Positions 60,412 to 61,330 of a stretch of 64,000 bases of DNA are shown here, in pieces. The translations under genes were made by a program, and so were the position numbers. How positions within the stretch are numbered: position 1 is the stretch's first letter; the number at the start of each line of letters is the position of its first letter. This DNA is from Escherichia coli (lineage in GTDB: Bacteria; Pseudomonadota; Gammaproteobacteria; Enterobacterales; Enterobacteriaceae): assembly GCF_045037415.1 (NCBI RefSeq), contig NZ_CP173438.1, one strand, 5' to 3'. The notes under the pieces are model-generated. The model saw only the letters and a program-made list of their open reading frames with translations, did not search any database and was not told the origin of the DNA.

Positions 60412-61330
60412 GAATCTTGACCTTTTTTGCTGTTATCGCCACTCCCTGCCGTGGAAGTCAGCTTAGAACAATGTACTCCCCCAGGACGGTGTTTTGAAGG
60501 TCTGCAGAATAAGATTTTGCCAGAGGGGAAGGCTCGATTGTGCTGTTAATAACTTAATAATGGCAAAATAATGAGGTGCATATGCTTAATAAGTAATGTT
60601 ATGTAGTGAATTGTTCTGATTCTTAATTGTAAGTGTGGTTTTTTTATCTGTAAGATAATTGTGTGAAAATGCCTCGTTTAAGAATTCACTACTGAATCGC
60701 GATGATGATATTTCCGCATTACGGAGAGTTTAACAGCGTGATGATTTCCGAGGTGTCACAATGGGGGCAAGGTGTGAAACTATTGTTAAGCGGAATTAAT
60801 GAATGGGGATGAAGCTAATTAATTATTATTTAATATTCAAAAAGGTTTTGTTGTGCTTATTAATAATAGAAGATTACTTTGCCTAACATAACATAACTTT
60901 GCATCAGATAATTCGCAATGACCCTTATAAATAAAAGGTTTTTGGGGTAAAATGCTTGCATAAATGACGGATCCCTGCTCTTGATGCCGCCTCACCATTG
61001 CTGTTTGTACGTGTTCGCGTATGACCAGCGATGCTGTACGAGAGTGGAACAAGGACTCACATTTACATTTATACAAACACGCGCATGTCATAAATAGAAA
61101 AGAGTGAGTAACTTAATAGATATGCGATCCCTGAAGATATATTCTGTGATCTACTTCAGGCATTATAACGGAACAATGTGAGTCGCTTTTTTAGTGCAAC
61201 TCATATGCATTTTTACTTTCGTCCGGGTTCCGGATGAAACTGCCAGGGAGGCACATTACAAATGGAATTGCTTGTTTGTGTGTGCACAGCATTAACCAGC
61301 TCAGTATGAGCCGCCAGTAAGTGATAATAT

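Follow-up and report, generated by a model that had tools for sequence, protein, structure and literature searches.

The intergenic region upstream of lrhA in Escherichia coli raises a simple question: why is it so long, and does it conceal a gene? We examined it within a 64-kb stretch of E. coli DNA (hereafter the window, to which all coordinates refer). The gap between open reading frames (ORFs) spans 919 bp (60412..61330) and is flanked on the left by alaA (59194..60411, minus strand) and on the right by lrhA (61331..62269, plus strand), which form an outward-facing pair in divergent -/+ orientation. The lrhA product scored 600 bits against the NCBIfam LrhA equivalog (cutoff 530), and RefSeq gives the two neighbors the names alaA and lrhA in both K-12 and strain U15A. 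A preliminary description of this DNA had reported a gene-free interval of about 920 bp upstream of lrhA, unusually long for E. coli and with an AT-rich block at about 60540..60900. This observation is confirmed as written. The interval holds no annotated feature and is the largest of the 62 inter-ORF gaps in the window (median 62 bp, runner-up 558 bp), and the GC content of 60540-60900 is 0.316, compared with 0.51 for the window as a whole, a value that falls among the lowest 2% for stretches of this size. The "920 bp-long lrhA-alaA" spacer had already drawn the attention of Shimada et al. 2014, who named it to illustrate long multi-factor spacers. With high confidence, we interpret the gap as the known regulatory region shared by the divergent alaA and lrhA genes, and we attribute its length to the control of lrhA at two levels.

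The gap is a stable component of E. coli chromosomes. Of 5426 complete E. coli genomes, 5425 contained a match, always as a single copy and only on chromosomes, and in 5383 genomes at least 80% of the interval was found in a single place. Identity ranged from 95 to 100%, save for one genome in the 80-90% band. Among 20 rows sampled down the match ranking, 19 have an uninterrupted gap, and neither these nor K-12 MG1655 carry an annotated feature beneath the match; the 20th row was a gap carrying an IS1. In 42 of the 5425 matching genomes no single place covered at least 80% of the gap. Compared with K-12, the window differs across the gap by 21 single-nucleotide polymorphisms (SNPs) and no indels. 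Most of these (17 of 21) fall within 60563-60851, which makes the AT-rich core the fastest-changing part of the gap within E. coli. Only two lie in the body of the lrhA leader (61006 and 61037), and none in its last 293 nt or in the region of the small-RNA (sRNA) sites described below.

Some other stretches of the window also stood out for their length or composition. The second-longest gap (12590-13147, 558 bp) is the most AT-rich (GC 0.26, with a minimum of 0.16 per 100 bp) and separates sixA from a yfcV-like gene for a fimbrial major subunit of the StfA family. Shimada 2014 marks the yfcV-sixA spacer as H-NS-associated, and the gap is therefore likely to be the promoter, in a silenced state, of a cryptic chaperone-usher fimbrial operon. 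A stretch of about 2 kb at 691-2852 has a GC content of at most 0.36, compared with 0.51 for the window, and overlaps the plus-strand ORFs 908-1789 and 1811-2761. Such a low GC content is unusual for coding sequence in the window and may point to horizontally acquired genes. On the other side of lrhA, a terminator-like hairpin (aaaccccagcggc...) follows the gene at about 62310-62345, in a lrhA-nuoA gap of 629 bp (62270-62898, GC 0.39). The nuo promoter region is known to lie here, so the 89-codon ORF at 62483-62752 is unlikely to be a real gene.

To place the gap in a broader evolutionary context, we used LrhA as a query to fetch 80 loci, a set that excludes Pectobacterium, Photorhabdus, Xenorhabdus, Dickeya, Serratia and Yersinia, and aligned the gaps of 78 Enterobacteriaceae species with MAFFT (--auto). 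The divergent alaA/lrhA pair is kept in the 78 species, with a gap of 764-1013 bp (median 943), and the implied lrhA leader is 333-463 nt long in all of them. Sequence conservation is concentrated in a few blocks: 60432-60511 on the alaA side, 60772-60851 in the middle, 60892-60953 at the lrhA promoter and 61252-61330, where the ribosome-binding region and sRNA sites lie. Conservation is poor over the first ~290 nt of the lrhA leader, and constraint is limited to its last ~80 nt. Overall, about 250 of the 919 bp are under sequence constraint. One of the fetched loci belongs to strain SCPM-O-B-8794, a GTDB representative that carries the label E. coli. The LrhA of this strain is 94.6% identical to the protein of the window (99.0% for K-12) and its lrhA leader body is markedly different, which suggests from these comparisons that the strain belongs to a divergent Escherichia lineage rather than to typical E. 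coli.

The preliminary description had assigned the gap to lrhA. This holds for the lrhA promoter and leader, but the left ~90-100 bp were overlooked and are better read as the promoter and leader of alaA. We predict a sigma-70 promoter on the minus strand at 60470..60498, with a -35 hexamer TTCAAA (60498-60493), a 17-bp spacer and a -10 hexamer TACATT (60475-60470), because the hexamers are invariant or nearly so across 48 aligned species while the 17 bp between them vary freely. Judging from the position of this promoter, transcription would start about 52 nt before the alaA ATG, giving a predicted 5' leader of ~52 nt (60412..60463, minus strand). The hexamers given for alaA by Shimada et al. 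differ (TTAAGA-17-TATAAC), which counts against our prediction. The gap therefore carries divergent promoters of two kinds of support, the lrhA promoter being anchored by a transcription start site (TSS) and the alaA promoter being predicted from its hexamers.

The predicted alaA leader contains a near-invariant palindrome or hairpin at 60441-60458, a few nucleotides downstream of the predicted alaA start, with arms ACTCCC and GGAAGT around the loop TGCCGT (plus strand). Across species it reads ACTYCC-TGCCGT-GGAAGT. The leader block reaches 96% identity over 16 nt in the 78 species, and the loop and inner stem of the palindrome are identical in 48 species. RNAalifold recovered five pairs, one of which (the outer pair) shows a compensatory change from A:U to G:C in 11 of 48 sequences. 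The fold of the alaA leader as a single sequence was ordinary (z = +0.34). The palindrome could be a stabilizing stem-loop at the 5' end of the transcript or a protein operator; we found no description of it in the literature.

Between the two promoters lie about 425 bp of AT-rich DNA (60500..60924; GC 0.24-0.43), located upstream of both start sites and outside the lrhA leader. In 100-bp windows over ~60500-60950 the GC content falls to 0.24-0.38, and the core is uneven, with an island of ~0.43 at 60700-60800. The sequence of the core is divergent among species (identity 0.23-0.5), yet its AT-richness is retained in all 78 orthologous gaps. Several published observations place regulators here. 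OmpR gives a ChIP peak on the spacer in E. coli and Salmonella, RNA polymerase holoenzyme with RpoD gives SELEX peaks on the lrhA-alaA spacer (Shimada et al. 2014), and Lrp binds the lrhA promoter according to a review. Transposon insertions in the intergenic spacer raise the expression of lrhA in E. coli and of pigU in Serratia. In our own motif scans, matches to the Lrp consensus occurred at four places in the core compared with about one expected for an equal length of the window, although the consensus shows no enrichment over the window as a whole and hits of this kind are inflated in AT-rich DNA; the high-affinity H-NS motif was absent from the gap and showed no window-wide enrichment. 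LrhA autoregulation is said to have been described by Lehnen in 2002. We regard the AT-rich spacer as a landing pad for AT-preferring global regulators, a role that is in part shown in the literature and in part our own reading.

Within this spacer one block is better conserved than its surroundings. The region 60772..60851, at -188 to -109 from the lrhA TSS, has a mean identity of 0.5-0.7 in the 78 species, compared with 0.25-0.4 for its flanks. It contains TGTGAA (60773-78), a dyad-like TTGTTAAG-N4-ATTAATGA (60783-60802) and AATTAATTATTATTTAATATT (60817-60837), and from this pattern of conservation it probably carries the site of a specific transcription factor. In strain U15A (NZ_CP035720.1), a human urine isolate, a 768-bp IS1 flanked by a 9-bp target duplication (TTGTTGTGC) sits at positions corresponding to 60848-60856 of the window, which are 104-112 bp upstream of the lrhA TSS; this insertion splits the conserved block from the lrhA core promoter. 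A strain of the Keio collection has been reported with an IS5 at -137 of lrhA, corresponding to approximately position 61194 (PMC12054083). Insertions thus seem to recur in the spacer and the leader, as they do at flhDC.

The lrhA sigma-70 promoter lies at 60925..60953 on the plus strand, with a -35 hexamer TTATAA (60925-30), a 17-bp spacer and a -10 hexamer TAAAAT (60948-53). Within it, CTTATAAA is 93% conserved across the 78 species, and the first T, the second A and the sixth T of the -10 hexamer are kept in 78 of 78, as TAAGAT, TAAAAT, TAGGAT and similar forms. The -10 hexamer is placed 7 nt upstream of the published TSS at 60960. We note that a generic promoter scan was uninformative in this DNA: it returned 3 sites compared with 3.2 expected from shuffles, and missed both conserved promoters.

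The position of the TSS follows from published work. Melamed et al. 2023 (eLife, PMC10578931) gave the lrhA 5' untranslated region (UTR) as 371 nt, and the 3' part of primer SM079 that is specific to lrhA, ATAAATGACGGATCCCTGCT, used for their PBAD fusion, corresponds to 60960-60979 of the window. The lrhA TSS is therefore 60960 (2,407,012 on the minus strand of K-12), and 60960..61330 on the plus strand is a leader of 371 nt; the other 548 bp of the gap accommodate the lrhA promoter, the predicted alaA promoter with its short leader and the AT-rich spacer. This is well above 100 nt, the length beyond which we call a leader long, and the -10 hexamer is conserved at that position in the 78 species. 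The proposal of the preliminary description that the interval holds a complex promoter and a long 5' leader for lrhA is thus borne out by the leader, its start site and the reported binding of OmpR, Lrp and RNA polymerase, apart from the omitted share of alaA. As a single sequence, the leader folds somewhat better than shuffled sequences (minimum free energy, MFE, -111.8 kcal/mol, z = -2.5).

The second level of lrhA control acts on this leader. Bilusic et al. 2014 (PMC4152368) detected Hfq-bound RNAs of 150 and 350 nt from 'ig-lrhA-alaA' by co-immunoprecipitation and Northern blot, attributed these fragments to processing of the lrhA leader, and found that the full-length lrhA mRNA of ~1.5 kb accumulates without Hfq. 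The best-established regulator is UhpU, which represses lrhA through direct pairing, as demonstrated with compensatory mutants (Melamed et al. 2023, PMC10578931): UhpU-M1 (CTGG to CTCG) was combined with lrhA-M1 (GCCGCCAGT to GCCGCGAGT). From the oligonucleotide and gBlock sequences, we located lrhA-M1 as a C to G change at 61315, just upstream of the ribosome-binding region. The UhpU pairing site (61310..61324, plus strand) overlaps that region (GCCGCCAGTAAGTGA), and C61315 is its proven contact. The AGTGA within the site is invariant in 25 species. UhpU control of lrhA has been reported as Escherichia-specific. At 61314-61316, Citrobacter braakii, C. youngae and Citrobacter sp. On2M read GCGAGT where E. 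coli reads GCCAGT, which is the same C-to-G change as in lrhA-M1, the mutation that abolishes repression by UhpU. On sequence comparison, the Citrobacter variant is consistent with the published Escherichia-specific control.

Other sRNAs have been connected to the same leader. ArcZ forms chimeras with lrhA and represses it, RprA represses it as well, and McaS forms the most chimeras with lrhA while translation is unchanged; the authors suggest inhibition of McaS (Melamed et al. 2023, PMC10578931). The RIL-seq chimeras of that study support the region of lrhA that pairs with McaS and RprA, and lrhA was enriched in MAPS with RprA (Lalaouna et al. 2018, PMC5861431). In order to position these contacts, we predicted seed-restricted duplexes with the K-12 sRNA sequences; whole-sRNA RNAduplex was rejected because it produced long spurious duplexes involving terminators. 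All the sites placed by these predictions fall in 61239-61321, on the plus strand. The predicted ArcZ site, CTGCCAGGGAGG (61239..61251, -92..-80), gives the best duplex at -20.1 kcal/mol using the 5' end of processed ArcZ, UUUCCCUGG, and is partly conserved. McaS and RprA share a predicted pairing region at 61279..61305 with the core CACAGCA (61285-61291): the best McaS seed duplex covers 61279-61301 (-18.0 kcal/mol, main helix ~61280-61291) and the best RprA seed duplex covers 61283-61305 (-18.9 kcal/mol). The CACAG core is invariant in the 25-species alignment and shows single-position changes in a few species of the 44-species alignment. Base pairing at the leader thus comprises published UhpU genetics, mapped to 61315, and predicted duplexes for ArcZ, RprA and McaS within 61239-61305.

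Between the ArcZ and McaS/RprA sites lies a further element, ACAAATGGAATTG (61258..61270, plus strand), which is highly conserved across species. Its 11-nt run AAATGGAATTG (61260-61270) has a mean identity of 86% in the 78 species, and its GGA is invariant in 25 sequences. Contact with Hfq or CsrA, or an additional sRNA site, are only hypotheses for this element.

The preliminary description had also raised the possibility that the interval encodes an unannotated small RNA. We found no sign of one. A search of the gap against Rfam at a permissive E-value returned no family near its gathering score; the best hits had E-values of at least 0.5 and belonged to eukaryotic miRNA and snoRNA families. 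No terminator-like site was found in the gap, the sole one detected being within the alaA coding sequence. The gap thus offers neither the combination of an own promoter and intrinsic terminator nor an RNA family match, and the only extra RNAs reported from it, the 150- and 350-nt fragments, are attributed by their authors to leader processing.

An unannotated small protein, also suggested, fared no better. On both strands, 31 ORFs of at least 10 aa lie in or overlap the gap, of which 29 lie wholly inside and could be tested. For 27 of these 29, including an 84-aa ORF on the minus strand, the frame is intact in only 0-3 of 77 other species. The two exceptions begin with TTG: one (60417-60497), intact in 11 of 77, is antisense to the invariant alaA leader, and the other (60899-60934), intact in 7 of 77, lies over the conserved lrhA promoter block. 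No ORF of at least 10 aa in the gap is retained outside Escherichia, and no leader peptide with start, frame and stop conserved in relatives was found. The preliminary description had named conservation analysis as a check on its proposal of a hidden gene, and with no conserved small ORF this half of the proposal falls by its own standard.

We also looked for conserved RNA structure in the lrhA leader. RNAalifold found no consensus pairs in either the whole leader or its last 135 nt (25- and 44-species alignments), and no covariation-supported structure emerged, although the poorly alignable body of the leader limits this test. Meaningful covariation support was lacking for three hand-drawn helices (61221-61236, 61304-61316 and the MFE helix, 61251-61285), and a hairpin involving the conserved GGA element received none. 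For instance, the hand-drawn hairpins were 61.9% paired compared with 59.2% in column shuffles (11 of 500 shuffles reached the observed value) and 57.9% compared with 57.8%. With no consensus structure and no meaningful covariation, the elements conserved at the leader's 3' end resemble recognition sequences that are single-stranded rather than structured. A search of the gap for repeats, inverted terminal repeats and REP-like elements returned only short two-copy matches of the chance type, and no REP, BIME or IS end was found. Taken together, there is no sign of a separate gene hidden in the interval.

How else might the gap be explained? The Hfq-bound 150- and 350-nt leader fragments may act in trans, for instance as a sponge for McaS, RprA or ArcZ. 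Hfq co-immunoprecipitates two discrete fragments while the full lrhA mRNA is scarce, McaS makes the most chimeras with lrhA while leaving translation unaltered, the authors themselves propose inhibition of McaS, and the CACAG core hardly varies in either alignment. However, the leader has neither a terminator-like site nor a conserved 3' end, its first 290 nt are poorly conserved, decay intermediates of sRNA-triggered cleavage would explain the fragments equally well, and no trans effect of lrhA leader fragments has been reported in the literature. We therefore consider such a function unlikely. CsrA is linked genetically to RovM, the LrhA ortholog of Yersinia. A broader suggestion starts from ACAAAUGGAAUUG, with its invariant GGA, together with CACAGCA: either the leader fragments sponge McaS, RprA or ArcZ, or the GGA is a site for CsrA or another protein. 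This suggestion is speculative and we hold it to be doubtful. A CsrA site at the GGA would, if real, connect LrhA of E. coli with the Csr system. Under either the sponge or the CsrA reading, the leader would be a bidirectional node rather than a passive target.

That the gap encodes a small protein or a regulatory upstream ORF is very improbable. With 31 ORFs of at least 10 aa, candidates are plentiful. The main one, a 28-codon ORF at 61234-61320, overlaps with the sRNA sites and terminates 10 nt ahead of the lrhA ATG, an arrangement known from translationally coupled genes. But this ORF is intact in only 2 of 14 close relatives and 2 of 77 species overall, and no good Shine-Dalgarno sequence, read by eye, precedes its start at 61234. 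The best retention of any ORF is that of the TTG frame antisense to the invariant alaA leader, and we found no literature report of a small protein from the gap. We give next to no probability to the idea that the AT-rich core was left behind by mobile or horizontally acquired DNA. The low GC content of the core (0.32), its SNP density, the highest in the gap, and the fact that IS elements do insert in the gap would fit such an origin. It is nevertheless ruled out by synteny, as the same gap length and AT profile are found between the same two genes in the 78 Enterobacteriaceae species; in addition, repeats, inverted terminal repeats and REP-like elements are absent, and the region is exclusively chromosomal in 5425 of 5426 E. 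coli genomes.

The explanation that we favor, a regulatory region shared by alaA and lrhA, can be read along the gap. At its left end a conserved sigma-70 promoter would direct leftward transcription from a position about 52 nt ahead of the alaA start codon. In the middle, ~425 bp of AT-rich DNA would serve as a landing pad for global regulators, with the block at -188 to -109 contributing a putative specific factor site, and disruption of this DNA or of the leader by transposons or IS elements changes lrhA expression. The lrhA promoter starts transcription at 60960, as the published TSS and the phylogenetic conservation show. The 371-nt leader then acts as a hub for Hfq-dependent sRNAs, with ArcZ, RprA/McaS and UhpU pairing within the final ~90 nt as far as the ribosome-binding site. 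According to the literature, these sRNAs repress LrhA synthesis and destabilize the mRNA, leaving the Hfq-bound leader fragments; the coordinates of the sites were mapped in the present analysis. Because LrhA represses flhDC, rprA and the translation of rpoS, the leader wires together the motility and stress circuits. The biological importance of this control region comes from the position of LrhA at the head of the circuits that govern motility, type-1 fimbriae and RpoS and, as was reported recently, CRISPR-Cas.

Earlier publications already cover the long spacer, the 371-nt leader and the sRNAs that regulate it, and in this respect the gap adds no new element. The lrhA 5' UTR studied by Melamed 2023 (PMC10578931), Bilusic 2014 (PMC4152368) and Lalaouna 2018 (PMC5861431) is the same locus: its TSS, 371-nt length, UhpU contact and sRNA site positions map onto the window, and nothing substantive differs. 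The results of Gibson & Silhavy 1999 and Peterson 2006 are cited here through PMC10810281 and PMC10578931. What we add is a coordinate map for this strain and a family-wide conservation profile, together with searches for hidden ORFs and conserved RNA structure that came out negative.

The orthologs of lrhA are known as hexA, pecT, pigU and rovM in Pectobacterium, Photorhabdus, Xenorhabdus, Dickeya, Serratia and Yersinia. In Serratia, a divergent alaA-pigU arrangement and an effect of intergenic insertions have been reported, as for alaA-lrhA. Within E. coli, the gap resembles a group of long intergenic regions, namely flhDC-uspC, csgD-csgB (755 bp) and nanC-fimB (1456 bp), which likewise combine divergent genes with a long AT-rich spacer, multiple global regulators and recurrent IS insertions that change expression; Shimada 2014 groups lrhA-alaA with the long spacers of master regulators. 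The flhDC and csgD genes also have long leaders targeted by sRNAs, like lrhA, and so does rpoS. Unlike the members of the flhDC/csgD/fimB group, lrhA shares its spacer with a housekeeping aminotransferase gene, alaA, which has a short leader, and the regulator map of the lrhA-alaA spacer is much less complete than that of csgD or flhDC.
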